Shown here piece by piece: positions 43,237-60,172 of a stretch of 64,000 nucleotides of DNA. Positions within the stretch are counted from its first letter, which is position 1. Every line of letters starts with the position of its first letter. The notes under the pieces are model-generated. The model was given only the letters and a program-made list of their open reading frames with translations. It did no database searches and was not told where the DNA came from. The stretch lies in assembly GCA_947626165.1 (NCBI GenBank), contig CANQRG010000003.1, positions 8,375 to 72,374 of the forward strand. The letters run 5' to 3'. The position numbers and the translations under genes are program-made. The stretch comes from an uncultured Clostridia bacterium. Lineage in GTDB: Bacteria > Bacillota > Clostridia > Oscillospirales > Ruminococcaceae.

Positions 43237-43249
43237 TTGACTAAGGGTA

Positions 43250-44675: not shown

Positions 44676-44765
44676 CAGTACATTGAATTTCTTTTAATAT
44701 CTTAGTCATTTTTTGCTTTTATTTGTCCTTTGTTTGCCATTTTTCTTTGATTAACTAGAGTTTTT

Positions 44766-44891
44766 CTGAGAAAAATCATAGTTATTCCGAGAATAACCAT
44801 AGTTAATCTGAGAAAAATGTATACAATTCTTTGAAAAATGTGTACATTTATCAATAAAATGTATACATTTCTTAAAATTATGTATACAATC
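44766..44891 (+). repeat. Six phased 21-bp iterons (putative replication origin of element A)
   Basis: Unit starts at 44766, 44787, 44808, 44829, 44850 and 44871. Consensus (c)tgagaaaaATGTATACAat. The last four contain the TGTATACA/TGTGTACA palindrome. Confidence 0.8.
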
Positions 44892-44941
44892 AAATTGTTT
44901 CATATATGTTATAAGTATCATATAGACTTTATTTATTTGGC

Positions 44942-45068
44942 TGTCTAAAAAATAGACAAGTCTAGTCTAAAAATTAGACAAGATTTCTATTTTTGAGCTT
45001 TTCACTTGTCTAAAAATTAGACAACCGTCACCGATTTTTTTAATTTTGGCTTGTCTAAAAATTAGACA
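44942..45068 (+). repeat. Four copies of the 17-bp palindrome TGTCTAAAAATTAGACA, immediately 3' of the rep-like gene
   Basis: Copies start at 44942, 44964, 45007 and 45052 (spacings 22, 43 and 45 bp). Confidence 0.85.
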
Positions 45069-45100
45069 CCTTTCTATATATACCATATACTTTTTTATTT

Positions 45101-45547
45101 TTATCTGTCTTTATTTTTTATTAAAGGGGTTGGAACGACATTTTGATTATAACTACGCTTTCGAATATCATAATTATAACCCTGTTCCTGTAATATAAAA
45201 CGCCATTTCATACTGAGTTTATAAAGATTAGACTTTCTTAGGTTACGATTAAACTCAATAACTTCTATAAATCCGTTTTCTACAAGCAAATCTCTTGAAT
45301 TTAAAAAGGTTTGCCTTGACATATCTAAACGATTTCTAGCTTGTGTTTCAGGATATGTAAAGGGCTCATCAAAATCCGCACCTACATAAAGATACATATC
45401 AATAAATAAACATCTTGCACTATATGTTATTTTTTTAAAAAGAGGGCTCAAATATAGGCTCGATGTAATTCTTATATATGGCTCGTGTCCGTCTTTAGTA
45501 TTTGTAAAGTAAGGCGGTATAGGTGTAATTCCATTTTTGCGTGACAA
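45101..45547 (-). CDS. Putative replication initiator / winged-helix DNA-binding protein
   Basis: The segment ETQARNRLDMSRQTFLNSRDLLVENGFIEV resembles a wHTH. It is located directly next to the iteron field. The functional call is by context. Confidence 0.5.
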   Translation of the reverse strand: MSRKNGITPIPPYFTNTKDGHEPYIRITSSLYLSPLFKKITYSARCLFIDMYLYVGADFDEPFTYPETQARNRLDMSRQTFLNSRDLLVENGFIEVIEFNRNLRKSNLYKLSMKWRFILQEQGYNYDIRKRSYNQNVVPTPLIKNKDR

Positions 45548-45560
45548 AAAGTATTACCCC

Positions 45561-45890
45561 CTAACTGTCATTGCTTATATTGCCCTCAAACTCACTTGCA
45601 AGCTCCCATTCTTCTAAACGCTTCTTAGCAGGCATTAGGGTACGCAATATTGATAAAGCTCTTGATTTTTCTTGCTTTACAAAGCTTCTCAGCTCTGCTT
45701 GAGTTTCGGGGTAGAAATAGCCATTTGAATTTGATAAAATAACGACCTTAGACCGTCTAAGCTGTTCTATAGCCTTTCTTAAATCTCGTTCACATAGTCC
45801 TGAGATCTTTTGCAGATATTTAGAGCTTGTTGCATTTTCACGCCCAGTTGCTATATTGTCGCATATTAATTGTAATATCTTATCCGTCAT
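45561..45890 (-). CDS. Hypothetical protein (109 aa)
   Basis: Tightly packed in the xis-rep operon (1-nt overlap with the upstream gene). Confidence 0.55.
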   Translation of the reverse strand: MTDKILQLICDNIATGRENATSSKYLQKISGLCERDLRKAIEQLRRSKVVILSNSNGYFYPETQAELRSFVKQEKSRALSILRTLMPAKKRLEEWELASEFEGNISNDS

Positions 45891-46093
45891 TATATTGCCC
45901 CCTGTTCGCCCTTATAGAGAAAATCTATAAGGCTATCAAGATTGACAAGGCTTTTATTGCCTGCTTTAACGTATACGACTTTATTTTGCTTTACAAGTTG
46001 TCTAAGAAAGTGCTCTGGTATTCCTGCTTCTATAGCTCCCTGTTTTATTGTCCTCATTCTCGGGAGCGGTCTGCTAATATTAATGTTTGCCAA
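45890..46093 (-). CDS. Excisionase-type (MerR/HTH_17-like) DNA-binding protein
   Basis: 67 aa. RTIKQGAIEAGIPEHFLRQLVKQNKVVYVKAGNKSLVNLDSL is typical of small Xis/AlpA-type proteins. Confidence 0.6.
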   Translation of the reverse strand: MANINISRPLPRMRTIKQGAIEAGIPEHFLRQLVKQNKVVYVKAGNKSLVNLDSLIDFLYKGEQGAI

Positions 46094-46224
46094 TTTAAAC
46101 TCCTTTACTATTGCGTTTCCGTCTAAATCGTGCTACAATAAAGGCGGAAACTCGGTTGATGTCCGTATGTTTCTGTTAGCAGGATTGAACAATCCTGCTT
46201 TAACCGTCTGAGTATTCGCAGTAC

Positions 46225-46410
46225 TCAGGCGGTTTTTTCTTGCTCTGATAGTTTTTTAATAATGCTCATTATGTTTTCCTGTTCTTGCTCCGAAAGCTCA
46301 GAACGCATTCGGCGTGTCATAGTAGGTTCTGAAATTCCCATTTCTTTTGCTATCTGCCAAAGATATACCCCTTTCTTTTTTGCATACTCTCTAATACTTT
46401 TGTTAGTCAT
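46225..46410 (-). CDS. Cro-like HTH regulator (61 aa)
   Basis: Start moved to the ATG at 46410 (AAGGAG RBS). LWQIAKEMGISEPTMTRRM is the HTH. Divergent from the XRE repressor gene. Confidence 0.65.
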   Translation of the reverse strand: MTNKSIREYAKKKGVYLWQIAKEMGISEPTMTRRMRSELSEQEQENIMSIIKKLSEQEKTA

Positions 46411-46585
46411 AACAACACTCCTTAAAAAATACTTGACAATCATCATCTAATCAGTTATAATGAATTTATGATGATGATTTTCATAATCGCATTATAACAT
46501 AAAAGTGACAAACAATCCGTATATTCATTATAATTTTATAATAATGAAATATAATATTTTAAATTCATTATTACAGGAGGACTTT

Positions 46586-47254
46586 ATGATAAAGCTGACA
46601 ATAGGAGAGCGTTTAAAAGATGAGCGTGTAAATAATAACCTAACTATTCAACAAGTATGTGACAAATTAAAAGAAAAGTATAACTTTAAGCTTTCAGTAG
46701 GTAAACTCAATGAAATGGAAAGCGATGAAGATAAAGATTTTGGTTATCGTGCTTTTGTATATTTATCAAAGCTTTATAAAGTTTCAACTGATTATTTACT
46801 AGGTCGAACTGAAGCAAAAACAACAGATGTTTTTGAACGAGAAATGTGCGATTATACGGGATTAAGTGAAAAGTCATTAAGAAAAATATTTAGTATGAAT
46901 ATGGCTTCAAAAACTCTTTTTAAATCTGGCGGTCCTATAGATGTATTAAATTATTTATTAGAGGGGAATTATTTTCATAATATAATTATTGCTTTATCTT
47001 CACTGGCTGAAGCGAGCGATGATGCCGTAGCTCGTGAAATACATTATGAAGACGATGAAGAAAATTATGAAGACTGGAAAATAAGAACGGCTGATGATGA
47101 ATCTAATTTAATAAGATACCGCATTTCAGAATTAACAACAAGAATGCTTGATGAATTTGATAGACGCAGTGAAAATAATACAGAGTTCAGAAAAAACAAG
47201 TATGGTTCCTCGTCAGTCATTACTGACGAATATGAAAAAGACGAGAATGTATAA
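46586..47254 (+). CDS. XRE-family repressor-like protein (CI/Stl position)
   Basis: Start moved to the ATG at 46586 (AGGAGG RBS). IGERLKDERVNNNLTIQQVCDKL is the HTH_3 motif, followed by a long C-terminal domain. Confidence 0.7.
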   Translation: MIKLTIGERLKDERVNNNLTIQQVCDKLKEKYNFKLSVGKLNEMESDEDKDFGYRAFVYLSKLYKVSTDYLLGRTEAKTTDVFEREMCDYTGLSEKSLRKIFSMNMASKTLFKSGGPIDVLNYLLEGNYFHNIIIALSSLAEASDDAVAREIHYEDDEENYEDWKIRTADDESNLIRYRISELTTRMLDEFDRRSENNTEFRKNKYGSSSVITDEYEKDENV

Positions 47255-47345
47255 TATTTTAAAATAAAAAGTTCTACTCCGACTGGTGAATCGTCTCAAA
47301 TTGTGCAGACAGAACAAAAAGACCCCTTAGAAAGGAGCTACTTTA

Positions 47346-48779
47346 ATGGCTTATATTCAAGAGCGTAAAGATAAGAACGGTAATGTTATTTCGTATTCAA
47401 TTAGAGTATTTAAAGGCTATGCTCCTGACGGCGAACAGCTTAAACCATATACCGCAACATTTAAGCCGGATAAGAATAAAACCGCTAGACAGAATGAAAA
47501 AGCGTTAAATAAATTCGTTGTAGAATTTGAAACAAAATGCAAAAGCGGACTTGCTTGTGATAATCGACAGACGTTTGCTGAGTATGCCGAGTATGTTTTG
47601 TCTCTTAAAGAAAGAAGCGGAGCAAAGCACACAACGCTTGTTAGATATAGAGATTTGCTGAAAGTAATTAACAAAAATATTGGTTTTATGAAGTTAGCAG
47701 ATATAAGACCGCAGCATTTAAATGATCTGTATGAATTACTTTCAAAGAGTGGTACACGCAGAACTAAAGACAAAGCCTGCTGTAAAATTGATTTTAAATC
47801 ATATTTGAAAGAACAAAGGCTAACACAAAAAGAACTTTCAGAGCAATCAGGCGTACCTTGTAACACAATGCGAGCTGTTATAAATGGAAAAAGCGTTTAC
47901 CTTTCAACTGCTGAAAAGCTATGCAAGGCTCTTGATGTACCTGTCAAACAGCTATTTAATGTAGTAACTGATAACAGACCTCTTGCAAATAAGACTATAA
48001 CGGAATATCACCGTTTAATATCAACTATAATGGCTCAAGCTGATAAAGAGCTATTAATACCATTCAATCCTGCTCGTAAGGCAACACCACCTAAAATAAA
48101 GCGTGAAAGTGTTAATTATTTTCAAATAGAGGACGTTGAACGCATAAGAAACAGTTTAGAGGACGAACCTATAAAATTTAAAACAATGGTACATTTATTA
48201 TTAATTACAGGTGCAAGAAGGGGAGAAATTTTAGGTTTAAAATGGAATTGTGTAGACTGGAACGCAAATCGTATCCATATTTGCAGGAGTATTCTTTATT
48301 CTTCAGATATTGGCATTTATGAAGATACTACAAAGACGGAACAATCTGATAGATTTATCACATTGCCATTAGAAACGATGGAGTTGTTGCGAGAATATAG
48401 AAGGTGGTATTTGCTTCAAGCTCGTATGTATGGAGATCAATGGCACAATACAGGATATTTATTCTTTCAGGAGAAGGCAAGTAATGCAGGAAAACCAATG
48501 CACCCAGATACTTTAAATGATTGGCTTTCTGAATTTTCAAAGCGTTATAATCTACCGCATATCAATCCACACGCTTTCAGACATACAATGGCAAGTATAC
48601 TTTACTTCAATAATATTGACAGCGTAAGTATAAGCCATAGACTTGGACATAGCAAAATAAGCACTACAACAGATATATATAGTCATATAATGAAAGAAGC
48701 TGACAAGCAATCAGCCGAATGTATAGCAAATGTTATCCTCAGACCGAAGGATAAATACAAACAGAGAAAAGCAGAATAA
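47346..48779 (+). CDS. Tyrosine recombinase/integrase with an inserted XRE-type HTH
   Basis: Catalytic residues in TGARRGEILGLKW, HAFRHTMAS and LGHSKISTTTDIYSH. Residues ~148-206 (LTQKELSEQSGVPCNTMRAVINGKS...AEKLCKAL) form an extra HTH. Confidence 0.9.
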   Translation: MAYIQERKDKNGNVISYSIRVFKGYAPDGEQLKPYTATFKPDKNKTARQNEKALNKFVVEFETKCKSGLACDNRQTFAEYAEYVLSLKERSGAKHTTLVRYRDLLKVINKNIGFMKLADIRPQHLNDLYELLSKSGTRRTKDKACCKIDFKSYLKEQRLTQKELSEQSGVPCNTMRAVINGKSVYLSTAEKLCKALDVPVKQLFNVVTDNRPLANKTITEYHRLISTIMAQADKELLIPFNPARKATPPKIKRESVNYFQIEDVERIRNSLEDEPIKFKTMVHLLLITGARRGEILGLKWNCVDWNANRIHICRSILYSSDIGIYEDTTKTEQSDRFITLPLETMELLREYRRWYLLQARMYGDQWHNTGYLFFQEKASNAGKPMHPDTLNDWLSEFSKRYNLPHINPHAFRHTMASILYFNNIDSVSISHRLGHSKISTTTDIYSHIMKEADKQSAECIANVILRPKDKYKQRKAE

Positions 48780-48782
48780 ATA

Positions 48783-48825
48783 AAAAAGCAGGCTTCACTG
48801 TAGGAAGTGAAAAAGCCTGCTTTTT
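48783..48825 (+). terminator. Integrase terminator
   Basis: aaaaagcaggcttcact-gtagga-agtgaaaaagcctgcttttt. Confidence 0.8.
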
Positions 48826-48840
48826 ATTGAATTTTTCAAA

Positions 48841-48865
48841 ATAGTTGAATTATTATTGAATTATT
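48841..48865 (+). repeat. Arm-type repeat at the right end of element A
   Basis: atagttgaattattattgaattatt. It shares a 19-mer with 41373-41391. Confidence 0.7.
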
Positions 48866-48923
48866 AGCCTGTTTTAACAAAACAAAAAGACGTCTGCAAA
48901 GCCTGCAAACGCCTATTTTACGT

Positions 48924-48968
48924 TGGTTGCGGAGGCTGGATTTGAACCAACGACCTTCGGGTTATGAG
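48924..48968 (-). repeat. att direct repeat 2 (junction between elements A and B)
   Basis: Identical 45-mer. Confidence 0.95.
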
Positions 48969-49087
48969 AAATTTCAGTCCTTGTTTTTGATGTTTTATGT
49001 TTATTTATGGAGAACACATAATATCAAAATATTAATGTATTTACGCAGTTTTCAACATTTCATAAGACGTTAACAAATTTAATGTTG

Positions 49088-49106
49088 TTTAGAACTTTTT
49101 TAGAAC
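49088..49106 (+). repeat. Arm-type repeats TTTAGAAC x2 (11-bp spacing), distal end of element B
   Basis: Copies at 49088-49095 and 49099-49106. A matching pair lies at 60009-60027. Confidence 0.6.
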
Positions 49107-49316
49107 AGTGGCTACACTTTTATAACTTCTGCTATAACATAACTTAAAGATAAAAACTTTAAAAGAAATTAAAGTATTTAATAAAAAAATAAATACTTTA
49201 ATTTCTTTTTTCTATAACTATTTAATTATTTAGTAATGTTTATCTTATTATTAAACTGAAACTATAAAACATGGTTATAATATTGGTATTACATTTCCAA
49301 TATAAAATTCAGTTGT

Positions 49317-50507
49317 TCAATCATTTTGTTGTTCGGGAAAATCAACAAAGCCCAGAAAGAGATGTCTTAAATTAAACAATGCACTGATTAAATTTTCACA
49401 ATTATATTCTATATCATAATTATCGAAACAACATCTATCAATTACTTCTAATCCACTACTAGGAATTCTATTCCCGGTTATAATTAGATTATTACCATAT
49501 TTTTCTCTATGATAATTTAGAGTATCGCATAATACAGGTATATCATCATTATAACAAGGGGTAAACTGTTTTAATACTGTAAGCTTTTCATATTTAGAAG
49601 CACTTATAAAATAATCAGATAACACATCACCCAAAAGGATTTGATATATATTTTTAAAATATATTATATTAGAAGTAAGAAATGATATATCCACTTTATG
49701 ATTATTATCCACTGAATTAAATATTATTCTTAATTTAACACTACCATCAGCCTTTATTTCCATAAAGTTGTGCAAATTTGATGGAAGAGCAGATATTCCG
49801 TCCGATATTTCTGCTTTTCCAATACTTATTAAAATAGAATTTGCCAATTTTGATATGCTAAATTGATTACTAATACCTTTAATATAATCTGCAATCCTTT
49901 GAAAATCTGTATTAAATAAATAATGATTGATTTTTGATAAATTCGAGGTGTTCAAAGAAAATCCCATATCCAAATATCCGTATATGTTTCGTGGAATTAA
50001 TGAATCGTTAATGTCTTCAATTGTTATTTTTTGAAGAATTCGTTTATCGTTTTCTTGCTTTTTATAGAAAAGCTGTGTTAATTTTGAAGAATCATTAATT
50101 ACATAGGATCCAGAAGAAACCCTTTCAAATATTTTTCCCCTATTTGTTATATATGGTGGGTCAATTCCTTCTTCGATTTTTATTACTAAAACTATCTTAT
50201 TCTGTGGTGATTCAAATTTTCTAATGTCAAATACAGGAATAGGTGTAATAGAATCATGAATAACACTATTTATTCTTTCTTCATTCCAATCCTGACATCC
50301 GATAATTTTTTTGTCATCGCTAACTCCTAAGAAAATATATCCACCATATGTATTAGCAAAAGCTGATATTTCTTTCATCAATTTTTCTGAGCTTACTCTA
50401 TCATCCTTATATTCAAAGAAAAAATTTTCTTCGTCACCCAATGATATTTGTCTTTCAATATCCTCGAAAGTTAGTTCATTCCATAGGTGTTTATTTATAT
50501 TTACCAT
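49317..50507 (-). CDS. AlbA_2 (Schlafen-type) domain protein with an uncharacterised C-terminal half
   Basis: Start moved to the ATG at 50507 (GGAGGG RBS). EENFFFEYKD...LMKEISAFANTYGGYIFLGVSDDKKIIG...VLVIKIEEG.DPPY matches my memory of the AlbA_2 pattern. Confidence 0.7.
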   Translation of the reverse strand: MVNINKHLWNELTFEDIERQISLGDEENFFFEYKDDRVSSEKLMKEISAFANTYGGYIFLGVSDDKKIIGCQDWNEERINSVIHDSITPIPVFDIRKFESPQNKIVLVIKIEEGIDPPYITNRGKIFERVSSGSYVINDSSKLTQLFYKKQENDKRILQKITIEDINDSLIPRNIYGYLDMGFSLNTSNLSKINHYLFNTDFQRIADYIKGISNQFSISKLANSILISIGKAEISDGISALPSNLHNFMEIKADGSVKLRIIFNSVDNNHKVDISFLTSNIIYFKNIYQILLGDVLSDYFISASKYEKLTVLKQFTPCYNDDIPVLCDTLNYHREKYGNNLIITGNRIPSSGLEVIDRCCFDNYDIEYNCENLISALFNLRHLFLGFVDFPEQQND

Positions 50508-51024
50508 TTTTCCCTCCATGGACTTATAATTAATAATAATTAATTACACTAATAAATTGCACAGTGGTTATATTTCTAATTTAAATATATCATAAATATA
50601 AAATTTGTCAACTTGTTTAATAATGCAACAAAGGTGCCTTATTTAAATTGACGTTGATGAATAAAATCAAGGGGAACTATTTCCATAAGCTAAGCCTGAT
50701 ATCTCGATATTGCAATTTACTTAGATTACTTTTACAAAAAAATAATTCCTGTTATGATTATAAGGCAATATATTTTACTTATTTATTTTTAAAACTAGAT
50801 ATAATTGATAACTTCTTTATCGTCTAGCTAGTTATATCTTTTATAATAGATTTCAATGATAAAAGTGTTATATTGATGTTGAATATATTAAAACAATTAA
50901 TATTTTATAATAAAGTATCAAAGTGTTAAACGTATTTAGATGTCTTAATAAGCAAATTAAAAGAAAATCTCCCCTATGGTAAATTAATAATAGTACCATA
51001 AGGGAGACATTTTTATATAAATTT

Positions 51025-52923
51025 TTAATTAAATTCTCTCCATGGGATTTGACTTGCAGTAACTTTTCTGTTAGTTCTTTTATCATAAATATGGTAATTA
51101 CCATTTTCTAAATCACTTAGAGAACAAATTTCAGCCGTAGTAATACCATTATCTCTTTCAATATAATCATGAGTTAAACCGTGAACTTTAAATACTTTTA
51201 TGCCAAGTAGACCGGAATCAATGTATTCATAATTTTTCTTCTCACTAAATTTTGAGCCATTTTTTCCTGAATTATATTCATTATCATTTGCAGAGCCACC
51301 ACCTAACGCACTTAGTAATATAACAGATAATATAACTCCTACTATTAGAAGAAAAATAAAAATTAGAAAAAGAGGTACTGCATTTTGAATAATTAGTAGA
51401 AGTAAAGGAAGTGCACCTAAAGCTAATATAACTGTTACCAAGAAAAAGAAGAATTCATCCCAATAACTCGAACTATGGGATAATATAAAAAACATAATTA
51501 CACCTATAATAAAAGTAATAAAAGTTACAATTACGATAGATTGCATTATTTTTTCATTTGATAGAAAAGAATATGAATCATTAGGTAACACAAATCCATT
51601 CTCGTCTCTTACAATTCTTAGATTACATAAAATTTCAATGATTATGCATGTTAAACATGAAATCCCTATTAGAGTTAAAGAAATAATCATTAAAACTTTC
51701 TTATATTTTTTTGATTGTTTAAAATAGATTATTAGCCAGTAAATAAAGAAAATTCCTATTAAAATCCCAAGAATAATTAAAACTGGAACACTGTAAAAAA
51801 TATGTACATTACCTGTAGTTAATTGACTTTCTAAATTATTTAAGCTCATTCCATTCTTTTTTAAATAATGAACCTGACTTGTAAAACCTCCTGACACTAT
51901 AAATATAATTAATGCTACAGCAAAAGTAATTACTGAAGTCGCAATAATTAATTTAGGTGTTATGTTTAAAATTTTGTTCGTAAAATCTTCTGTAAATAGT
52001 TTTTCTTTTAGTGGAATTCCTTTTTTGTTTCTATCTTTTTTAAGTATTTTAGTTTTATTTTTTATTGTAGTAGAAGTATGTTTAATATTATTGCTATTAC
52101 TGTTATCATTATAATTACCAACCAATTTTGAATAAAGAAGTTTACCTCTTTTGACAATTCTATAATTTATATTATCTAATAGTTGAGAAAGTTCTTCAAT
52201 AGTTTTAGGTCGGCTTTCTAAAGTTTCATTTCCTTGTATAATGGGTATATGAGAGCTAACTAAAGGATTTATTTGCAAATCACTTGTAAGATAATCTTCA
52301 AGTTCAAATTTTTCAGTATATAATTTCAAAGTGTTTTGATCCCAGTCTGTGCTTTTACGAAGCCATATCATTGATAAGTCAAAATAATCATTCCATGCAG
52401 AGGCTCTAGCCTGATTAAAACTTTGTCTTTCTTTAGTAAAAGGATTTACCTTTTTAGGTACAAGCGTAAGATTGCCTATAGTATGTGTTAATCCTGCAAA
52501 GGTATTAAATTTATTAAATATATCTTCCGACAAATTTTTTATTATTATTTTCTTTAACTGTTTGTAGTTTGAAAGTAAAATTGATGCAGAACTTGTTACT
52601 ACATACGAAATTCCTAAAACTTTCTTTATATCGTTAAGACACCAATTATTTAGTGCCCAAGCAAATGTTATCCAAAAGGAATTCATAGTATCCATTCCCA
52701 TTAATATATTCTGATTTCCTACATTTATGTATTGGAAGCTATCTCTAATTTTATTATCAAATCCCCAAAGCTTATTATAAACTAATTTTGCATAATCACA
52801 TCTATCGCAATCAAAAGGAGATGTATCAGATTTATATAGTAAGAACTTATATAAATTATCTACTTTGCTTTTTTTACATTGCTTTAATTCATTTTTTAAA
52901 TCATAATCATAATTCTTAAACAT
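51025..52923 (-). CDS. Large polytopic membrane protein (632 aa) with an N-terminal ~300-aa soluble domain and a C-terminal ~90-aa soluble domain; unknown function
   Basis: Long ORF in a very AT-rich region. Six or more TM segments between residues ~325 and 545. I recognise no catalytic motif with confidence. Confidence 0.75.
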   Translation of the reverse strand: MFKNYDYDLKNELKQCKKSKVDNLYKFLLYKSDTSPFDCDRCDYAKLVYNKLWGFDNKIRDSFQYINVGNQNILMGMDTMNSFWITFAWALNNWCLNDIKKVLGISYVVTSSASILLSNYKQLKKIIIKNLSEDIFNKFNTFAGLTHTIGNLTLVPKKVNPFTKERQSFNQARASAWNDYFDLSMIWLRKSTDWDQNTLKLYTEKFELEDYLTSDLQINPLVSSHIPIIQGNETLESRPKTIEELSQLLDNINYRIVKRGKLLYSKLVGNYNDNSNSNNIKHTSTTIKNKTKILKKDRNKKGIPLKEKLFTEDFTNKILNITPKLIIATSVITFAVALIIFIVSGGFTSQVHYLKKNGMSLNNLESQLTTGNVHIFYSVPVLIILGILIGIFFIYWLIIYFKQSKKYKKVLMIISLTLIGISCLTCIIIEILCNLRIVRDENGFVLPNDSYSFLSNEKIMQSIVIVTFITFIIGVIMFFILSHSSSYWDEFFFFLVTVILALGALPLLLLIIQNAVPLFLIFIFLLIVGVILSVILLSALGGGSANDNEYNSGKNGSKFSEKKNYEYIDSGLLGIKVFKVHGLTHDYIERDNGITTAEICSLSDLENGNYHIYDKRTNRKVTASQIPWREFN

Positions 52924-52987
52924 TATTTTTTCTCCCCATTTATTTTATACAAGCAGTATATCCTCAAACTTTACTTTTAGAATTCAC

Positions 52988-54592
52988 CTAATTTGCATTT
53001 TCATTTTTAAAACTTGATAATATTAAAATTACTTCTTTTTCTTCTTGCTTAGTGAATTTCCCATCTGGTGCATCTGCAATTAAAGAAATATAACCACTAT
53101 ACCAAAAAGCAAATTCCCCTTCATATGCAGTAGTTACACTGTCATCAATGCCTAATCTTGATTTAGGCAGTACAGCAAACGATACAGAACCGTCAATATC
53201 AGTAAAATCGGTATCATTTAGCATGTCTAAAGTACCTGTCAGTTTTAATTTAGCAACGGCAAATTCGCCCAAATCTCTGTAGTCGGCAGCTTGTACATAA
53301 CCGGGAATAAAACTTGATTCAGCTACTTGTGAAACTTCAACACGTTTCATTAAGACGTGCGAACCACCACCTAAATTTCCTTCTTCAACATCACAAATAT
53401 GTGAGTATTTAATTTTAACTCCACGTTCATTTGTAAGAATTATTGTTTCTCCTGCTGATGTTACGCTATTTTGTGAAATCATCCAATTACTTGGATATGA
53501 AATAGTAAAGTTTGGGTATGTGACAGCGTTCTTTTCGCTAAATTTTGTTGTATATGAATGCTTTAATACAATATCTTTTGCATAAGTTGTATTATTGTTG
53601 GTATTAGAGACTTGATTCTCTATTACTTTTTCTCCTAATTGAGCAAATATATGATTTTCTGTTCCATCTGTTTTAATTCTATACAATTTGTCACCTAAAT
53701 TGTAGTAGAGCCAATCTCCATGTAGTTGTAACTCTGGCAAACCATCTATATTTGATAAAAGTCGTTTTTCTGTACCATCAGTCTTTATTTTATATATTCC
53801 CCCATCAGATACATAATAAATCCAACCATTATTTTCAAGTATACACATAACATGCGCTTCGGCAACAAGTTGTTTTTCTGTGCCATCTGTCTTCATTTTA
53901 TACAGATCTTTATTGTCATAATCGGCAAAATAAATCCAACCGTTATCTACAATCATATAGTCTGTCCTTCCATCATAAATAGCTTGGGGGTCAGATCCGT
54001 CTAGTTTCATTTTGTAAATTTTTTCGTTTTCTGTATAAGACTCTGTATCAAAAAAATAAATATAGCCGTCCACAATATTTAATGTATAGCCACTTGCTAC
54101 ATTGTTATTATATATCCGTTCTTTACCTGAACCATCAAAATTCATTCTGTATTCACTGCCATTATAAATTTTCCCATCAACTAAATGCACACCGCCCCTT
54201 ATGTCCTCAGCGGCTATCTGTTCATAATATGTGCCATCTGTTTTTATTCTATATATACCTAGGTCTCTGAAATAAACCCATTCGTCTATTACATTGATAT
54301 CATATACCCCATATTCGGAATTAAAAATTTTTGTTTTTTCTGTTCCGTCTTCTTTACATTTATACAATCCGTCATCCAAACTATAAAATAACCATCCATT
54401 TTCTTCGTCAACTTGACCATCGTTTGCAATATTATAGTTTGTATTACCAACTCTTCCTTTTTGCATTTCCTTAGTTGATAAAATATCATTTTTTGCATTA
54501 TTATCTTTTCCTGTATTTGCTTTACAAGCAGTACATCCTATTGATAATAGAATAAAAAGTGAAATTAATAAAATTCTTTGAAAATGTTTCAT
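52988..54592 (-). CDS. Lipoprotein with a seven-repeat beta-propeller (DUF5050-like) and an unknown C-terminal domain
   Basis: Lipobox LLSIGC. Seven Y(K/R).K.DG(T/S) repeats (YKCKEDGTEK, YRIKTDGTYY, YRMNFDGSGK, YKMKLDGSDP, YKMKTDGTEK, YKIKTDGTEK, YRIKTDGTEN). Confidence 0.8.
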   Translation of the reverse strand: MKHFQRILLISLFILLSIGCTACKANTGKDNNAKNDILSTKEMQKGRVGNTNYNIANDGQVDEENGWLFYSLDDGLYKCKEDGTEKTKIFNSEYGVYDINVIDEWVYFRDLGIYRIKTDGTYYEQIAAEDIRGGVHLVDGKIYNGSEYRMNFDGSGKERIYNNNVASGYTLNIVDGYIYFFDTESYTENEKIYKMKLDGSDPQAIYDGRTDYMIVDNGWIYFADYDNKDLYKMKTDGTEKQLVAEAHVMCILENNGWIYYVSDGGIYKIKTDGTEKRLLSNIDGLPELQLHGDWLYYNLGDKLYRIKTDGTENHIFAQLGEKVIENQVSNTNNNTTYAKDIVLKHSYTTKFSEKNAVTYPNFTISYPSNWMISQNSVTSAGETIILTNERGVKIKYSHICDVEEGNLGGGSHVLMKRVEVSQVAESSFIPGYVQAADYRDLGEFAVAKLKLTGTLDMLNDTDFTDIDGSVSFAVLPKSRLGIDDSVTTAYEGEFAFWYSGYISLIADAPDGKFTKQEEKEVILILSSFKNENAN

Positions 54593-54715
54593 ATTTAAAT
54601 TTTCCTCCTTATTTGTTTTTTATTATAATAAATAACAAATAAAATGTCAACTTAAAATATATTTATCAATTTAAAGTGGATAATATGAGGCTATACTACT
54701 TTTAGGAGGGATATT

Positions 54716-55018
54716 ATGATATATTTTGGAGTTCGACTAAAAGAATTAAGAAAAGGCAAAAATTTAACTCAACAACAACTAGCTGATAGAATGTCGTTAG
54801 TTAAAAGCTCTATTTCAGCATATGAGAAAAGTGCAAAATATCCCTCTATTGAAGTTCTTGTAAAGCTATGCCATTATTTCAATGTATCAGCTGATTATTT
54901 ATTAGGTCTTTCAGACAATAAAACTATAAAGGATTATAATTTGACGGAAGAACAGATAGAAATAGTTATGAAAATTATTGTTCAATTTCATCAACTTAAT
55001 AATCAAAAGTATAAATGA
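54716..55018 (+). CDS. XRE-family HTH transcriptional regulator
   Basis: LKELRKGKNLTQQQLADRMSLVKSSISAYEKSAKYPSIEVLVKLCHYFNVSADYLLG. Confidence 0.85.
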   Translation: MIYFGVRLKELRKGKNLTQQQLADRMSLVKSSISAYEKSAKYPSIEVLVKLCHYFNVSADYLLGLSDNKTIKDYNLTEEQIEIVMKIIVQFHQLNNQKYK

Positions 55019-55175
55019 AAGTGAATTAATTTTATCACGGCAAAACATTAGAAAATATTAAAAAATAAAGGCTTTTTTCGCTCAACTGATTGGGTTGGTT
55101 GACCTTATTATCAGTATGTATAAACTTATATAAAAAGGGATACTGTTAAAAATTTTTAAAACGAGGTGAATAATT

Positions 55176-55646
55176 ATGAGTGATTTTCCTTTTTGTTATA
55201 CAGAAGAAGAATGGCAAAAAATAAAGCTTCAATATAATACGGACTTTAAAAGATATAATAAACACATTAAATCATTTCGAGAATTAATAAACGAGATTCT
55301 TCAAGGTGAGACAGAGGGAAGCTTTGTAAGAAAAACAGGTCTAAGTCCGAATATGTTTTCGAGAATAAGAACACAAATTGATAAGACGAATCCCCCGCAA
55401 AGAAACACACTTATGTCTGTTGCAGTTGGGTATAATCTTGACTATCAGCTTACGGCTGCATTGCTTGATAGCATAGGACTTAAATTTATCCTTAGTAACA
55501 AACGTGATTATGCATATCAATTTTTATTAACAAATTGCAGAGGTAAAACTGTTGATGAATGTAATGACATACTCAAATGTTTAGGAGTTGAAGAAAAATA
55601 TTGGTTAGGAGTGCATGCAAGAAAGAAATATACTAAGTGCAATTAA
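55176..55646 (+). CDS. Hypothetical protein (156 aa), possible HTH
   Basis: GAGGTG RBS. SFVRKTGLSPNMFSRIR is HTH-like. Position is in the element backbone. Confidence 0.6.
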   Translation: MSDFPFCYTEEEWQKIKLQYNTDFKRYNKHIKSFRELINEILQGETEGSFVRKTGLSPNMFSRIRTQIDKTNPPQRNTLMSVAVGYNLDYQLTAALLDSIGLKFILSNKRDYAYQFLLTNCRGKTVDECNDILKCLGVEEKYWLGVHARKKYTKCN

Positions 55647-55901
55647 AATACACATTATTACAATTATGAGCAGGGTAAATAACTCTGCTCTTTTTATATT
55701 TTCTCGTACTTGTCATGTACGATGAAAAACTTTGGAACATACGCTATTTTGAAAGAACATGTCATAGAACAGGGCTTTTATTTACCGTTATTTCGTACTT
55801 ACCATGTATGGCACAATTTCTCCAGTTATGTTATTCTAATTTCAGACATGAGATGCATCACATTGTCGAATAATAAATTACAAACTAGGAGGAAAGTTAT
55901 T

Positions 55902-56252
55902 ATGTCATTAAAAAAACTATCACGCTTTCTATACTTTGATATAGAAGGATTTCTTGAAAAAAAGAAGCTTATGATAATTGGGATTCAGGAGTGGAAGGAC
56001 TTTGACACACAGAAGTTTCTTGGCACAAAAGTTGAGGTGGTTATTACATCTGACAAGACTGATTATGGTACGACTGGAGGGGAAGTGGTAACCAACCTCT
56101 ATGAAAAACTAACGATTAAGATACCTGCGAAGCTGACTAACATTCCAATGAATGTTGAAGTTCGGCTTGTGAATCCAGAGGCTGTTGTATATGGAGAATA
56201 TCGCAATGCTCTGAGCATTACCGCAGAAAATATTGAAATTGTCGGAAAGTAG
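55902..56252 (+). CDS. Hypothetical small protein (116 aa) of the element backbone
   Basis: Start moved to the ATG at 55902 (AGGAGG RBS). Confidence 0.6.
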   Translation: MSLKKLSRFLYFDIEGFLEKKKLMIIGIQEWKDFDTQKFLGTKVEVVITSDKTDYGTTGGEVVTNLYEKLTIKIPAKLTNIPMNVEVRLVNPEAVVYGEYRNALSITAENIEIVGK

Positions 56253-56270
56253 TCAGGCGTAAGGCGAGGC

Positions 56271-56290
56271 GTGCCCCTTTCAAGGGGCAC
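56271..56290 (+). promoter_or_regulatory. GC-rich stem-loop, candidate nick site (oriT/dso)
   Basis: gtgcccc-tttcaa-ggggcac lies in an AT-rich context, 43 nt upstream of the Rep gene. Confidence 0.35.
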
Positions 56291-56332
56291 AGCCGATGCC
56301 CTATTAACTTGATTATCAGGTGATATTATTCC

Positions 56333-57286
56333 ATGAGTACTATTAAACGAAAAATTAAAGTACCTAAATATATTGATTTACAAAAAGTTGTATTGTTAAA
56401 ATCTATGGGCAATATCAAAGAAATAGCAATTTCTGATAAACATAATTCAGGGGCTACAGTTAAACCAATTTCCAAAGATGAATATTTGCTTTATTCTACT
56501 GGCGAGGTTAAAAAGTTTGAAAATCATGCTTTAGACAGAACAGAAAACTTACGAAATTTACAAAAGACAATGCATTGTCTTTCCGATTTAATAAATGCAA
56601 ATATTTATTCTGAAAATGCTGATTTCTGTAAATTTATTACTTTTACATATCGAGAAAATATGCAAGATTCAGACAAACTTTATATTGACTTTAGAAATTT
56701 TAATAAAAGGTTTAAACGATATATGGAGAAGTTAGGATATCATTATGAATATATTATAACCGTTGAAGCACAAGAAAGAGGTGCATTTCATCTGCATGGT
56801 ATATTTATATTTTCAAAGAAAGCTCCGTTTATTGAAAATACTGTGCTTTCTGACATGTGGGGATTAGGCTTTGTATCTATTAAAGCACTTGATAAAAATA
56901 TTGATAATATAGGAAAATATCTTACTTCATATCTTACTGATTTACCTATTGATAATTCTTCAAATATCGTTCAAGAATTCATGGGTGGTGACATAAAAGA
57001 AATTTCTGTAGACGATAACAGAAAACGAATAATTAAAGGTGCAAGATTAAAACTTTTACCTGTTGGAATGCGAATATATAGGTACTCAAGAGGTATTAGA
57101 AAGCCAAAAGTTAAATCTATTTCTTATGGTGAAGCATTGAAAGAATTATCAGATAGTGGTTTTTCAAAAGTGAATGAATATGCAATAGAGATAAAGGATA
57201 TTGAACGTGATTTTACAAGTCAATATATAAAACAAACATTTAAGAAGAATATTAATACAAATAAAAAGGTCGGTGATAAACATTGA
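56333..57286 (+). CDS. HUH-type rolling-circle replication initiator / relaxase-like protein
   Basis: FITFTYREN (motif I-like), GAFHLHGIF (HUH motif), IGKYLTSYLT (catalytic Tyr motif). Confidence 0.7.
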   Translation: MSTIKRKIKVPKYIDLQKVVLLKSMGNIKEIAISDKHNSGATVKPISKDEYLLYSTGEVKKFENHALDRTENLRNLQKTMHCLSDLINANIYSENADFCKFITFTYRENMQDSDKLYIDFRNFNKRFKRYMEKLGYHYEYIITVEAQERGAFHLHGIFIFSKKAPFIENTVLSDMWGLGFVSIKALDKNIDNIGKYLTSYLTDLPIDNSSNIVQEFMGGDIKEISVDDNRKRIIKGARLKLLPVGMRIYRYSRGIRKPKVKSISYGEALKELSDSGFSKVNEYAIEIKDIERDFTSQYIKQTFKKNINTNKKVGDKH

Positions 57287-58518
57287 AAACAAAAGAACGA
57301 GTAAAAGCAGGAATAAAGCGTATTTATGAAAAACCAATTTTTCTTTTAATTCCATTACTATACGTTATAGTTTTAGGGTTTATTACACATAGAGAATTAG
57401 GAATTTTAAAAATACTATTTTTAAAGTATACTTTCATATTTATGATTATTGTCTTAGCTTTAGTGGGTATATGTTTTATAGTAAAAATAATAGGTACTCC
57501 AATAAAATCTAAAAAAATAGAAAAGGCTCTTTTAAATATTGGATTTATAGATAATTCAGGTGACAGCCCTATGTTATTATCACAAAAGAAAAGCAAAAAC
57601 GGAACTATACTTGAATTCTACTCTAAAATGATTCCACTTTCTGAATATGAAAAACATAAAGAAAAAATTGAAACAGCACTTAATTTAAAAATCATATCAA
57701 TTAGTCGGGGAAAAGATGTGAGGCATGTAATAATAAAGGCTATAAATTCTTTGACGGGAAACGAAGATATTATTTATTGGAACGACAAATATTTAAGTGA
57801 AAAAGATTTTGAGCTTGTTTTGGGCGAAAGCTATTTTGAAATTGAAAGCATTGATATTACAGTAACACCACATATTTTAATTGGCGGTGGTACAGGCTCT
57901 GGTAAGAGTAAGTTATTAAAACTTATTCTTATTGAAAGTATAAAAAAGGGAGCAAAGATTTTTCTTGCTGACTTTAAAGGTGGTATTGATTATCCAAGTG
58001 TATGGCATAAGCAGTGTAAAATTATAACTGAGCAGAAGGAACTAGATAGTCAATTATCAATAATACTTGAAACAATGGAAGAACGAAGACACATGCTTGT
58101 AGAATCTGAAACACCTAATATCAAGGAATACAACGAAAAAACAGATTCAAATCTCCCAAGAATTATCATAGCTTGTGATGAAATTGCTGAAGTACTTGAT
58201 AAAACTGGACTTAATAAAAATGAAAAAGAATTAGTTAATAAAATTGAAAGTAAAATGTCAACCATTGCAAGACAAGGTAGAGCTTTTGGTATTCATCTAA
58301 TTTTTGCAACACAAAGACCAGATTCAGAGATTTTAAAAGGGCAAATAAAGAACAATATAAGTTATCGTGTATGTGGTCGTGCTGATAAAATATTATCACA
58401 AATTATTTTAGATACACCAGAGTGTGCCAATATTATTTCTCCAAATGACCAAGGAATGTTCCTCACTAATACAGGTGTTCTGTTTAAATCGTATTATATC
58501 GAGGATAATTGTTTGTAG
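57283..58518 (+). CDS. FtsK/SpoIIIE-family DNA translocase (coupling-protein type)
   Basis: Two N-terminal TM segments, Walker A GGGTGSGKSK, Walker B IIIACDEIAE, FATQRPD. TTG start overlapping the rep stop. Confidence 0.85.
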   Translation: MKTKERVKAGIKRIYEKPIFLLIPLLYVIVLGFITHRELGILKILFLKYTFIFMIIVLALVGICFIVKIIGTPIKSKKIEKALLNIGFIDNSGDSPMLLSQKKSKNGTILEFYSKMIPLSEYEKHKEKIETALNLKIISISRGKDVRHVIIKAINSLTGNEDIIYWNDKYLSEKDFELVLGESYFEIESIDITVTPHILIGGGTGSGKSKLLKLILIESIKKGAKIFLADFKGGIDYPSVWHKQCKIITEQKELDSQLSIILETMEERRHMLVESETPNIKEYNEKTDSNLPRIIIACDEIAEVLDKTGLNKNEKELVNKIESKMSTIARQGRAFGIHLIFATQRPDSEILKGQIKNNISYRVCGRADKILSQIILDTPECANIISPNDQGMFLTNTGVLFKSYYIEDNCL

Positions 58519-58571
58519 AAAACTAATTGACTGTTTTAGAGTATTATGAAGAAAGGGAGTAGGTGTACAAA

Positions 58572-58751
58572 ATGTTGGAGAATTATCCAGATATTTTAAC
58601 TATTAAACAACTTAAAGAAATTTTAAATATAGGGCAAAACAAAGCATTGGCAATTTTACATAATGGAAAAATTCAATATTTTAGAATTGGTAGATCTGTA
58701 AAGATACCTAAGAAAGCTGTTGTAGATTATATAGAAAAATCTATAATGTAA
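58572..58751 (+). CDS. Excisionase (HTH_17)
   Basis: ILTIKQLKEILNIGQNKALAILHNGKIQYFRIGRSVKIPKKAVVDYI. Confidence 0.8.
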   Translation: MLENYPDILTIKQLKEILNIGQNKALAILHNGKIQYFRIGRSVKIPKKAVVDYIEKSIM

Positions 58752-58850
58752 CTTGACAAAACAGCCACACCAATGTTAAACTTGGGATATTATAAAGGTG
58801 TGGCTGTTGTCTTTGTTCTAACATGAAAATGTGAACGGAGGTTAAAGCCT

Positions 58851-60005
58851 ATGATTAATGGAAGTATACAACAAAAGAAAGGTAACTTATACGCAGTTTT
58901 GAGTGTACCCAAAGCAGGAGGTGGATATAAAACAAAATGGGTTAGCATGAAAATGAAGCCCACTGAAAGTAAGCGAAAGCAGAAAGCTAAACTTGATGAA
59001 ATAAGAATTGAATATAGCAATATTTTAAGTATAGAATCATTTGAAATTAAGTTTTGTGACTATATAAAGAAATGGAATGAAGAAACCAAATCTGAAAAAT
59101 CAATAACTACTTATGACGGTTACTGCCATATGATAAATAAATACTTGTACAACTATTTCGATGAAAGGGGATTGACTTTGGCAGAACTTAGAACAGCTGA
59201 TATTGAATCTTATTATCGATATCTACAGCATGATTGTAATTTATCAGGAAATACAGCTTTAAAACATCATCAAATTATATACACAAGTCTAAAATATGCC
59301 GTATATAATAGAGTTCTAAAAGAAAATCCTGCAGAATATGTCAAAAGACCAAAGAAAAGTAAAGCTAATCATGATTTTTATAATGCTAATGAGCTAAAAG
59401 AATTAATGAGTGTTGCAAAAGGCGATGTACTTGAAACAGCTATTTACTTGACAATTTGGTTAGGTTTAAGGCGTGAAGAAGTGCTTGGACTTAAGTGGTG
59501 CAACATAGATTTTGAAAAACATATTATTAAGATTTGTGAAACTGTTGTAAGAGCAAAACAAGACGGTAAAATAGTTAGCATGTCAAGAAAACGGACTAAA
59601 ACAGAAACAAGTAATCGAGTTCTTTATATGACAGATGTTATAGAGGACTATTTATTACATATAAAATATCAACAAAATAAATATCAGCTTATATGTGGTA
59701 ATAGTTATGATATCAATGATTATGTTTGTAAAAACAAATTAGGAGAACCTGTAAAGCCAGATTATATAACACATCATTTTAATGCATTACTAAAGAAGAA
59801 CGGTTTAAGACATATTAAATTTCATGATTTAAGACATTCTTGTGCAAGTTATATGCTCGACAATGGTTATAATCTAAAACAGATACAAGAACTATTAGGA
59901 CATAGCAACTATAATTTCACTGCTGATGTTTATACTCATGTGGACATAAAATCTAAACAAGATATGGCTAATAAAATATCTAACGATTTGAAAGCGGTTT
60001 ACTAG
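58851..60005 (+). CDS. Tyrosine integrase (Tn916-Int-like, with an N-terminal arm-binding domain)
   Basis: GSIQQKKGNLYAVLSV...YKTKWVS N-terminal domain. Catalytic residues in GLRREEVLGLKW, HDLRHSCASYM and LGHSNYNFTADVYTH. Confidence 0.92.
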   Translation: MINGSIQQKKGNLYAVLSVPKAGGGYKTKWVSMKMKPTESKRKQKAKLDEIRIEYSNILSIESFEIKFCDYIKKWNEETKSEKSITTYDGYCHMINKYLYNYFDERGLTLAELRTADIESYYRYLQHDCNLSGNTALKHHQIIYTSLKYAVYNRVLKENPAEYVKRPKKSKANHDFYNANELKELMSVAKGDVLETAIYLTIWLGLRREEVLGLKWCNIDFEKHIIKICETVVRAKQDGKIVSMSRKRTKTETSNRVLYMTDVIEDYLLHIKYQQNKYQLICGNSYDINDYVCKNKLGEPVKPDYITHHFNALLKKNGLRHIKFHDLRHSCASYMLDNGYNLKQIQELLGHSNYNFTADVYTHVDIKSKQDMANKISNDLKAVY

Positions 60006-60008
60006 CTT

Positions 60009-60027: not shown

Positions 60028-60095
60028 TCTCAATTTTGTTAAGTATAAAAACAAAAGCTTGACTTTACAAAACAATGCAAAATCAAGCTCACATT

Positions 60096-60172
<77 letters not shown>

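Follow-up and report, generated by a model that had tools for sequence, protein, structure and literature searches.

Mobile elements can carry hotspots of defence genes, as exemplified by the hotspots of P2/P4 prophages and satellites and by hotspot 5 of the SXT integrative and conjugative element (ICE). Among the genes that protect bacteria from phages are those for prokaryotic Schlafen (pSlfn) proteins, nucleases fused to diverse sensor domains, of which 55 architectures and 558 unannotated groups have been described (Perez Taboada et al., Nat Microbiol 2026; PMC13056530). The Schlafen RNase site, in SLFN11 as well as in the prokaryotic proteins, is defined by an Ex4(E/D)xK catalytic motif, the sensor domains diverge faster than the nuclease, and 69.6% of pSlfn genes have a known defence gene no more than 10 kb away; in RorSlfn5, the C-terminal domain senses the T5 tail assembly chaperone, leading to tRNA cleavage (PMC13056530). 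Furthermore, a Schlafen protein of Enterococcus lactis, whose C-terminus contains no known domain, provides broad abortive-infection defence (PLoS Biol 2026, PMC13552941). A second type of protection is represented by the Ltp-type lipoproteins of temperate Streptococcus phages, exclusion genes placed beside the repressor gene (PMC3952083). Here we analyze a stretch of 64,000 nucleotides (nt) from an uncultured Clostridia bacterium (contig CANQRG010000003.1, positions 8,375 to 72,374; hereafter the window), and in it element B, an element inserted in a tRNA-Met gene whose cargo arm encodes a pSlfn protein (gene 1), a membrane protein of 632 amino acids (aa; gene 2) and a lipoprotein (gene 3). 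On balance, we consider it probable that this arm holds two unrelated units, namely a stand-alone pSlfn immune gene residing in a defence slot and a separate two-gene unit (unit 2, genes 2 and 3), both carried by a probably mobilizable element.

Gene 1 matches the Pfam family SLFN_AlbA_2 (PF04326) across profile positions 1-116 of 118 (E = 2.3e-23; 83 bits, at a cut-off of 25.3). Its catalytic motif is intact, with no variation at E27, E32 or K34 across 38 aligned family members (44-80% identity). An AlphaFold2 (AF2) model built from these 38 sequences has a mean pLDDT of 88, and Foldseek aligned its N-terminal part with probability 1.0 to SLFN13 (5yd0), SLFN14, SLFN5, SLFN11, SLFN12, the SAMD9 tRNase and DIP2311 (~140-250 aligned columns; E values of 2e-5 to 2.5e-3). 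In sequence and predicted fold, gene 1 has every feature by which the pSlfn anti-phage nucleases are recognised. An earlier sequence-only reading of this DNA had described an AlbA_2/Schlafen-like protein with a domain that binds nucleic acids; the family assignment is correct, but the functional description undersells a protein carrying an intact nuclease motif. The family is large, with 624 clusters (90% identity) at E <= 1e-3, nearly all of 390-410 aa and matching in full length. An alternative upstream ATG would extend gene 1 itself to position 50519 (400 aa).

The remainder of the protein is predicted to fold into a separate domain that has no Pfam match, and all significant Foldseek matches of the model in the PDB were Schlafen-domain proteins. 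Histidine-kinase, helix-turn-helix (HTH), DUF5929 and DUF262 models gave no match to this domain, and its predicted secondary structure is not that of an Ig-like beta-sandwich. Mean pairwise identity within the family is 62% in the nuclease domain versus 42% in the C-terminal domain. By analogy with the published pSlfn proteins, we infer that the C-terminal domain is the sensor. PADLOC (2023, PADLOC-DB v2), which the sequence-only reading had proposed to run, contains no model for gene 1 and named no system; its sole match was to the Schlafen segment of a pAgo model (3.7e-4). NCBIfam and PHROGs likewise returned no named system for the three proteins, with one 'DNA helicase' PHROG covering the AlbA_2 domain, and the pSlfn gene was not found by tblastn in phage and plasmid collections.

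The strongest contextual argument for gene 1 as an immune gene is that its position is shared with AbiG in a sister element. Upstream of gene 1 lies a promoter that agrees with the consensus at 11/12 positions and has an extended -10 (Table 1), and the segment holding it is 93-96% identical upstream of pSlfn in one sister element (L010) and of AbiGi/AbiGii in another (L001). L010 carries the int/xis/FtsK/Rep backbone of element B, here too with pSlfn as the final gene ahead of att, and by blastn it is 84% identical to the window both in the backbone (over 55900-59657) and in the pSlfn region (over 48924-50567). L001 shares with the window the 116-aa backbone gene and the 632-aa gene (78%), and it keeps a 43-nt segment 93% identical to window 50570-50612 as well as ~190 nt matching 48939-49125. 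After the promoter, the L001 slot contains AbiGi (PADLOC, 9e-82), AbiGii (4e-45) and a gene for a 294-aa membrane protein, and no pSlfn. The attL-proximal arm is retained in L001 (72%) and L010 (84%) whatever the content of the slot. By contrast with these conserved flanks, only ~50 promoter-proximal nt of the 517-nt spacer between the 632-aa gene and pSlfn (50508-51024; 22% GC) are kept in the sisters; this spacer has no Rfam match (48800-55300 scanned) and no convincing open reading frame (ORF), and a 78-aa ORF at 50868-51104 overlaps the end of the 632-aa gene. As judged from these alignments, the conserved promoter and the att arm bracket a slot in which defence cassettes, pSlfn or AbiGi/AbiGii, are predicted to swap. 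Because the slot is shared with AbiG, gene 1 would be an autonomous unit.

The genomic surroundings of the wider family point in the same direction. A genome scan identified 63 pSlfn-family loci, mostly in gut Clostridia and also in one Coriobacteriaceae and one Prevotella metagenome-assembled genome. In 38 full-length loci we called ORFs and took the two genes closest to pSlfn on either side, which gave 145 proteins. In line with the check on nearby defence genes that the sequence-only reading had proposed, restriction-modification (R-M) and abortive-infection genes were found among these neighbours: PADLOC identified 6 type IIG restriction endonuclease-methyltransferases, 4 type III restriction endonucleases, 5 PDC-S04 and 4 SoFic proteins, and Pfam identified 8 Eco57I, 7 ResIII, 6 of each of five MmeI domain families, 6 Fic, 4 Resolvase (in 3 loci), 2 GmrSD_N, 2 HNH, 2 AbiEii-type AAA_21 and 2 EcoRI methylase matches. 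Set against published housekeeping controls (PMC13056530), our only reference, this density of defence genes is far higher. For example, the relative in L012 has large serine recombinases on one side and, on the other, a methylase gene next to a ResIII helicase gene, interpreted here as a type III R-M system. In L014-L016 a relative directly follows DUF6088/AbiEii, interpreted as AbiEi/AbiEii, and the surrounding island also contains Fic and a Dam-type methylase. In 5 loci, an MmeI-type type IIG gene ends 10-28 nt before pSlfn on the same strand (e.g. L033:7211-9973), which suggests that the two genes are co-transcribed and possibly that restriction is functionally paired with Schlafen abortive infection. 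In 3 loci (including L024:8176-9983 and L039:8174-9982), genes for a 193-aa small serine recombinase and an unannotated 255-aa protein lie 18-22 nt upstream of pSlfn; small serine recombinases have been proposed as markers of defence genes (PMC13552941), and this three-locus arrangement fits that proposal.

Element B spans 48969-60094 (~11.2 kb) and is an integrative element inserted in tRNA-Met, with 46-nt direct repeats at both ends. The exact repeat, which corresponds to the 3' part of the tRNA-Met gene, occurs in three copies in the window, at 41200, 48923 and 60095, where 0 are expected by chance. A tyrosine integrase, xis, Rep and an FtsK-like translocase lie between these tRNA 3' repeats, and the flanks differ between copies; Pfam and the 46-nt repeats thus bear out the element with an int/xis/FtsK/Rep backbone that the sequence-only reading had delineated. 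One further assembly, L085, holds the whole 11.2 kb at 99.9% identity, with both att copies and a left flank unrelated to that of the window, implying a different host or locus, and near-identical copies occur in at least five further samples. Taken together, these sequences indicate that element B is real and recently mobile; it is probably mobilizable, with transfer itself predicted from its genes.

At 98-99.9% identity, element B was seen with three left flanks: element A in the window (48872-48922), a DUF4760 gene and a 139-aa gene in L004 (L004:6364-7692), and DUF218, heptaprenyl-diphosphate synthase and NusG_II genes in L085 (L085:11228-13516). L004 and the window share ~50 nt beyond attL, which hints at a remnant of a tandem partner. 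Element A itself (41246-48922, ~7.7 kb) lies in tandem at the same tRNA-Met site and is bounded by the same 46-nt repeat. Its integrase (477 aa; 47346-48779) carries an HTH_26/HTH_3 insertion at residues 151-209, and it also encodes a 276-aa sigma-70 region-4-like protein (43508-44338).

In base composition, the cargo genes (pSlfn, 27.1% GC; 632-aa gene, 26.0%; lipoprotein gene, 31.8%) are more AT-rich than the chromosome (36-37.5% GC), as the sequence-only reading had stated. Its parallel statement for the backbone does not hold gene by gene (Rep, 27.5%; FtsK, 28.9%; int, 29.5%): the gap amounts to 1-3 GC points and has the opposite sign for the lipoprotein gene, which rules out a cargo compositionally foreign to the backbone. 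The 24-26% GC of 1-kb windows over 49-53 kb owes much to intergenic spacers of 20-22% GC.

Table 1. Features of element B and its cargo arm (window coordinates; a dot marks features without a strand).
Feature	Coordinates	Strand	Description
attL	48923..48968	.	46-nt exact copy of tRNA-Met 3' part; left edge of element B; also present in L085
attL-proximal arm	48969..49125	.	holds GTTCTAAA..GTTCTAAA repeat; one flank of the predicted defence slot
pSlfn gene (gene 1)	49317..50507	-	396 aa; N-terminal Slfn/AlbA_2 nuclease domain and unannotated C-terminal domain
pSlfn C-terminal domain, presumed sensor	49320..50027	-	residues 161-396, ~235 aa; confident AF2 alpha/beta model
Catalytic-motif codons	50406..50429	-	E27-x4-E32-x-K34 = ENFFFEYK (regex)
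Slot promoter segment	50570..50619	-	TTGACA, 16-nt spacer with TG, TATATT, spanning 50611..50584
632-aa membrane protein (gene 2)	51025..52923	-	head 52108-52923; six transmembrane (TM) helices 51286-51963; tail 51025-51285
Lipoprotein gene (gene 3)	52988..54592	-	534 aa
Lipoprotein parts		-	signal peptide and lipobox 54533-54592; DUF5050 propeller 53699-54445; LipoC 52991-53575
Unit 2 promoter	54622..54650	-	perfect sigma-70 consensus TTGACA-17-TATAAT, 12/12 positions
XRE-family HTH gene	54716..55018	+	100 aa; HTH_19 7e-16, HTH_3; co-directional with backbone
Regulatory and backbone genes	55176..60005	+	156-aa ORF, then 116-aa core ORF 55902-56252
Rep; FtsK-like	56333-57286; 57283-58518	+	Pfam REP_ORF2-G2P; FtsK_SpoIIIE
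xis; integrase	58563-58751; 58851-60005	+	integrase = Pfam Phage_integrase (tyrosine integrase)
attR	60095..60172	-	repeat copy 60095-60140, in tRNA-Met gene 60096-60172 (ARAGORN)

Translation confirmed the three cargo ORFs of the sequence-only reading, all on the minus strand, as well as the 64-nt gap between its last two genes and the XRE gene diverging from them. This XRE gene lies 123 nt from the lipoprotein gene, and the -10 box of the unit 2 promoter forms the midpoint of an imperfect palindrome (54591-54660) whose 35-nt arms adjoin directly and are 77% complementary; this palindrome may be an operator, with the AT-richness of the region leaving chance as another possible origin. PADLOC matched the XRE protein to the regulator-type HTH_VI and capH models. 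The gene is replaced in L001 by a 196-aa HTH_19 gene and in L010 by a 66-aa HTH_26 gene. Its orientation into the backbone operon and these replacements make it more likely to be a regulator of the element itself, and it may also control the divergent promoter of unit 2. Control of the whole cargo by XRE, as previously proposed, is plausible only for the lipoprotein and the 632-aa gene. L001 (1802-3853) encodes a 683-aa protein in which a Zn ribbon and sigma-70 regions 2 and 4 occur together with a membrane-spanning region, a Thr-rich linker and a large, presumably extracellular C-terminal domain; its gene lies 22 nt upstream of that for the 628-aa DUF6994 membrane protein, and this membrane-tethered sigma factor appears to replace XRE as the local regulator.

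The lipoprotein begins with a signal peptide ending in an LLSIGC lipobox, followed by a DUF5050 domain (PF16472; E = 1.8e-46, residues 50-298). As described by the sequence-only reading, seven Y..K.DG(T/S) propeller repeats are present, 4/7 detected by script and the others read from the translation. PADLOC yielded no match for gene 3, and its C-terminal domain (LipoC, ~195 aa) has no relative in Pfam and none in a PDB profile search. The protein has 859 relatives, in which DUF5050 is fused to cell-wall, Ig-like, SH3 and kinase modules, and full-length relatives (43-55% identity) stand alone beside cotJ/Mn-catalase or aconitase genes. In the sister elements, the gene has decayed to a 160-aa ORF 76% identical to residues 48-203 (L001) and to a 132-aa ORF (L010, where 6203-6684 matches window 53616-54091). 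These remnants in both sister elements imply that the lipoprotein is dispensable for both of its neighbours. We also considered that the 64-nt-spaced pair might form a conserved operon; this was ruled out, with the lipoprotein only a remnant in the sisters.

LipoC recurs in other architectures. For example, in L092, one LipoC match from the phage/plasmid tblastn search, it ends a 658-aa surface protein beside a surface protein of 1100 aa. The 429-aa and 683-aa proteins of L001 and the 458-aa protein of L082 were considered as lipoprotein relatives and rejected, showing no similarity. Beside LipoC/DUF5050 genes at three unrelated loci (L010:5016-6134, L090:8046-9011 and L092:5846-6835) we observed N-anchored, coiled-coil, Ser/Gly-rich proteins of 321-372 aa, which are similar to each other (E = 2e-7 and 1e-4); the L010 and L090 members were scanned and matched no Pfam or PADLOC family.

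The 632-aa protein starts with a soluble head of ~320 aa, followed by six hydrophobic spans within residues ~321-546 and then by a tail of 86 aa, in agreement with the topology given in the sequence-only reading. The protein itself has no Pfam match at E <= 0.01 and none in the PDB, and its best PADLOC match was a 2TM effector at E = 0.07. Against DUF6994 (PF22507; cut-off 27), two homologues reach 27.9 bits (P0010) and 34.0 bits (P0013), and a profile of the head retrieved 492 clusters among 1.84 billion representatives, with 55/103 of those scanned being Pfam DUF6994. At the level of profile similarity, the head is thus placed in the DUF6994 superfamily. In 24 close relatives, the N-terminal 270 residues are common, with ~55 invariant positions, many of them D, N, H, R or W, and the membrane and C-terminal parts differ, the latter carrying Zn-ribbon or LRR_5 modules. 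The head block ...FA.LTHTIGNL.LVP...FN.AR... resembles the GNLxLL...N...F..K part of DUF1524.

DUF6994 has been predicted to adopt a beta-beta-alpha fold like that of HNH/type IV restriction enzymes, with the catalytic His replaced by Ala and with two invariant Asp (PMC11701544). In our head alignment (103 sequences), A143 is conserved in at least 90%, D179 is invariant, and D8, D40, D78 and D182 are each at least 90% conserved. The head is modelled at pLDDT >90. Foldseek against the PDB and BFVD gave no match at E < 0.2 with the full-length model, including its low-confidence TM part, as the query, such that the search proposed by the sequence-only reading, which recovered the Schlafen fold for gene 1, returned only noise for gene 2. 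PDB profile searches with the head were empty, and neither the beta-beta-alpha-metal similarity nor the catalytic His of HNH/His-Me finger nucleases was found by Foldseek or these profile searches. Searching phage and plasmid collections by tblastn gave only remote DUF6994 fragments (two Enterococcus phage records, one E. faecium plasmid and one Bacillus record), and a metagenome scan with the head alignment found no loci.

We compared seven independent contexts of the 632-aa family. In the window, the gene lies in the element B cargo with XRE and the DUF5050-LipoC lipoprotein; in the sister element L001, it lies between the upstream 683-aa sigma-70-domain membrane-spanning protein and a downstream 429-aa lipoprotein; and in L082, a different int/xis/RepB/FtsK element, it is accompanied by a divergent XRE gene and a 458-aa PASTA lipoprotein. 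L090 (4114-9844, an IMG/VR contig) holds a WYL-WCX regulator, DUF3232, a 726-aa DUF6994 homologue with a C-terminal Zn ribbon, a 321-aa N-anchored acidic protein and a 270-aa LipoC lipoprotein; this cluster was seen near the contig end, beside an endolysin-like amidase, a Dam methylase and an integrase fragment. In L080 an HTH-WYL-WCX regulator lies directly upstream, and L081 and L003 are plain chromosomal contexts. An adjacent co-directional lipoprotein gene is present in 4/7 contexts. Between the window and L090, LipoC is 44% identical (1e-53), whereas the DUF6994 heads share only 29% identity. WYL-WCX regulators are typical of defence islands (PMC9122601). Together, the lipoprotein adjacency, the recurrence of LipoC and the WYL-WCX regulators hint weakly at a functional link, possibly a conflict-related one.

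How far the three cargo genes belong together can be weighed from these comparisons. The sequence-only reading favoured a module of three genes, and a single three-gene defence or exclusion machine under the divergent XRE regulator would account for three adjacent genes that lie on the same strand of the cargo arm, with no terminator-like site separating them, and that remain linked in six or more near-identical element copies. However, these copies are 98-100% identical and hence uninformative on co-conservation, and in the more diverged elements the trio is broken up: L010 carries pSlfn and a lipoprotein remnant with no 632-aa homologue, and L001 has a 632-aa homologue and a lipoprotein remnant with AbiG in place of pSlfn. 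Since pSlfn has its own conserved promoter, separate from that of unit 2, and the three genes dissociate in this way, the trio does not form one module. Relatives of each gene mostly occur alone, those of genes 2 and 3 in ordinary chromosomal contexts. Relatives of the 632-aa protein or the lipoprotein are absent from the neighbour clusters shared by at least two of the 38 pSlfn loci and from the top Pfam neighbour families, and tblastn over the loci examined found them beside pSlfn only within this element family; the co-occurrence that the sequence-only reading had suggested looking for was not seen elsewhere among these loci. We therefore regard a single three-gene machine as scarcely credible. 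Of the earlier proposal of a defence module, what stands is gene 1, a member of the pSlfn class in a slot shared with AbiG, and what falls away is genes 2 and 3, which have no PADLOC match. Gene 1 might instead have a non-immune role, either as a nucleic-acid-binding regulator or as a toxin-like addiction module that stabilizes the element: it is the outermost gene of a mobile element, a position that maintenance genes may likewise occupy, and NCBI names its relatives only 'ATP-binding protein'. Nevertheless, its nuclease motif is intact and invariant, Pfam found no HTH or kinase module in it, and it has no conserved antitoxin-sized neighbour, being flanked by the non-conserved 517-nt spacer upstream and by attL downstream. 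Moreover, the alternative occupant of the slot, AbiG, is a bona fide abortive-infection system, and the family occurs in dense R-M, Abi and Fic neighbourhoods in non-mobile contexts, such that we give a non-immune role little credence. Several points do weigh against the two-unit interpretation with an immune gene 1. About 30% of the surveyed pSlfn genes have no defence neighbours and may serve other roles (PMC13056530), our neighbour counts come from a crude ORF caller applied to a set with no matched controls, and the slot is deduced from three element variants (the window/L004/L085 type, L010 and L001), with further copies of the slot promoter pattern not found in metagenome and viral collections. 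In addition, the presumed sensor domain has no recognisable fold relative, and no terminator-like site was found between the units, making read-through into pSlfn conceivable.

For unit 2, our best guess is an envelope-associated accessory pair whose exported lipoprotein is dispensable, and the question is whether such a pair takes part in conflicts between mobile elements. It may simply be surface or envelope cargo, for instance ligand-binding or niche-adaptive proteins of gut Bacillota, that has no such role and is partly decaying. This would fit the very large DUF5050 family (859 relatives), fused to extracellular modules and found beside housekeeping genes, the occurrence of LipoC at the end of the L092 surface protein, the 632-aa relatives that lie near BspA-type leucine-rich repeat (LRR) surface proteins or, in one case, are fused to LRR_5, and the lipoprotein remnants in two sister elements. 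It fits less well with the strongly conserved head, whose ~55 invariant residues, many of them Asp, Asn, His or Arg, suggest a cytoplasmic enzyme rather than a surface adhesin, and with the recurrence of the 632-aa family on mobile elements and beside WYL or XRE regulators; we hold ordinary envelope cargo to be a serious possibility, if short of an even chance. Ranked below it is a new envelope-coupled defence or superinfection-exclusion pair, in which the variable ectodomain of the surface lipoprotein would sense or block phage or DNA arriving at the envelope and the membrane-tethered, cytoplasmic DUF6994 domain (HNH-like, His-to-Ala) would act on nucleic acid. DUF6994 membrane proteins do occur in the cargo of three int/xis/Rep/FtsK elements (window, L001 and L082) and on the IMG/VR contig, with a co-directional lipoprotein gene adjacent in four of the seven contexts and with LipoC common to the window and L090 despite the divergence of the heads. 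L080 and L090 each have an HTH-WYL-WCX regulator gene directly upstream, a type characteristic of defence islands (PMC9122601), and the window and L082 have an upstream XRE gene. The fold that Pfam curators predict for DUF6994 is HNH/type IV restriction-like (PMC11701544), and the Ltp lipoproteins set a precedent for exclusion genes beside a repressor (PMC3952083). Yet unit 2 has no defence match in PADLOC, PHROG or Pfam, 3/7 contexts are plain chromosomal and devoid of mobile or defence genes, and the lipoprotein partners are unrelated except for the window/L090 pair. In L001 the lipoprotein is decayed next to an intact membrane protein, LipoC/DUF5050 lipoproteins are mostly found alone beside housekeeping genes, no HNH-like Foldseek match was found for the 632-aa model, and the canonical catalytic His is reported absent in DUF6994 (PMC11701544). 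The exclusion role suggested by the sequence-only reading also found no backing in homology to known exclusion proteins, and overall we consider an envelope-coupled defence or exclusion pair unlikely. A broader version appears more doubtful still: that a DUF6994 membrane protein and a variable surface lipoprotein constitute an unrecognised immunity or exclusion module of Bacillota mobile elements, in which an outside event would control a His-less, HNH-like cytoplasmic enzyme, often under WYL-WCX or XRE regulation.

Combining these results, we chart a working model for the cargo arm as two separate units. Unit 1 would be a single-gene immune module, pSlfn, read from its own strong promoter in the last position before attL. 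By analogy with the tested pSlfn proteins, the C-terminal domain would hold the N-terminal Ex4ExK nuclease inactive and release it on binding a phage component; the nuclease would then cut tRNA, such that translation stops and phage yield falls, and the element would be protected along with its host. Unit 2, the lipoprotein gene followed by the 632-aa gene, would be read from the consensus promoter back to back with the XRE gene.

The analysis assigns a large gut-Bacillota family, with more than 600 clusters carried in databases as 'ATP-binding protein', to the newly validated Schlafen class of tRNA-cutting effectors, and the unannotated pSlfn C-terminal domain possibly responds to a new phage trigger. 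A compact tRNA-Met element family with a promoter-equipped last-gene slot provides a handle for defence discovery in bacteria where such systems are poorly charted. The association of DUF6994 membrane proteins with lipoproteins poses a testable question that is worth a systematic survey. The cargo arm also illustrates a general caution, namely that neighbouring genes in such an arm need not form a system.

In comparison with known systems, gene 3 resembles the Ltp lipoproteins (PMC3952083) as a surface lipoprotein encoded beside an element's repressor-type HTH gene. It differs from them in showing no similarity to Ltp/Sie families by Pfam, PHROGs or NCBIfam, in its much larger size (DUF5050 plus LipoC), in the mostly chromosomal location of its relatives and in its decay in the sister elements. 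For gene 2, likeness to the GmrSD/BrxU-type His-Me nucleases extends to a fold that Pfam curators have only predicted for DUF6994, with the catalytic His reported replaced by Ala; relative to other DUF6994 proteins, many of which are shorter (~260-400 aa), its head is fused to six TM helices and a tail. Gene 1 differs from RorSlfn5 and EcoSlfn7 in the unannotated C-terminal domain and in the hosts, which are gut Bacillota and not Enterobacterales, and it shares with them the N-terminal PF04326 domain, the Ex4(E/D)xK motif, the single polypeptide, a faster-diverging second domain and a location in defence islands and on mobile elements. With the E. lactis Schlafen protein (PMC13552941), to which it is likened by description and through the Schlafen domain only, it has in common a Bacillota host, a C-terminus without a known domain and, within the family, small serine recombinase neighbours, although gene 1 itself is carried by a tyrosine-integrase element. 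Finally, the slot of element B differs from the P2/P4 and SXT hotspots in belonging to a small tRNA-Met int/xis/Rep/FtsK element of gut Bacillota, in being represented by three variants and in having a promoter within its conserved flank. In common with those hotspots, it occupies a fixed backbone position at which anti-phage systems appear to be exchanged between conserved flanks.

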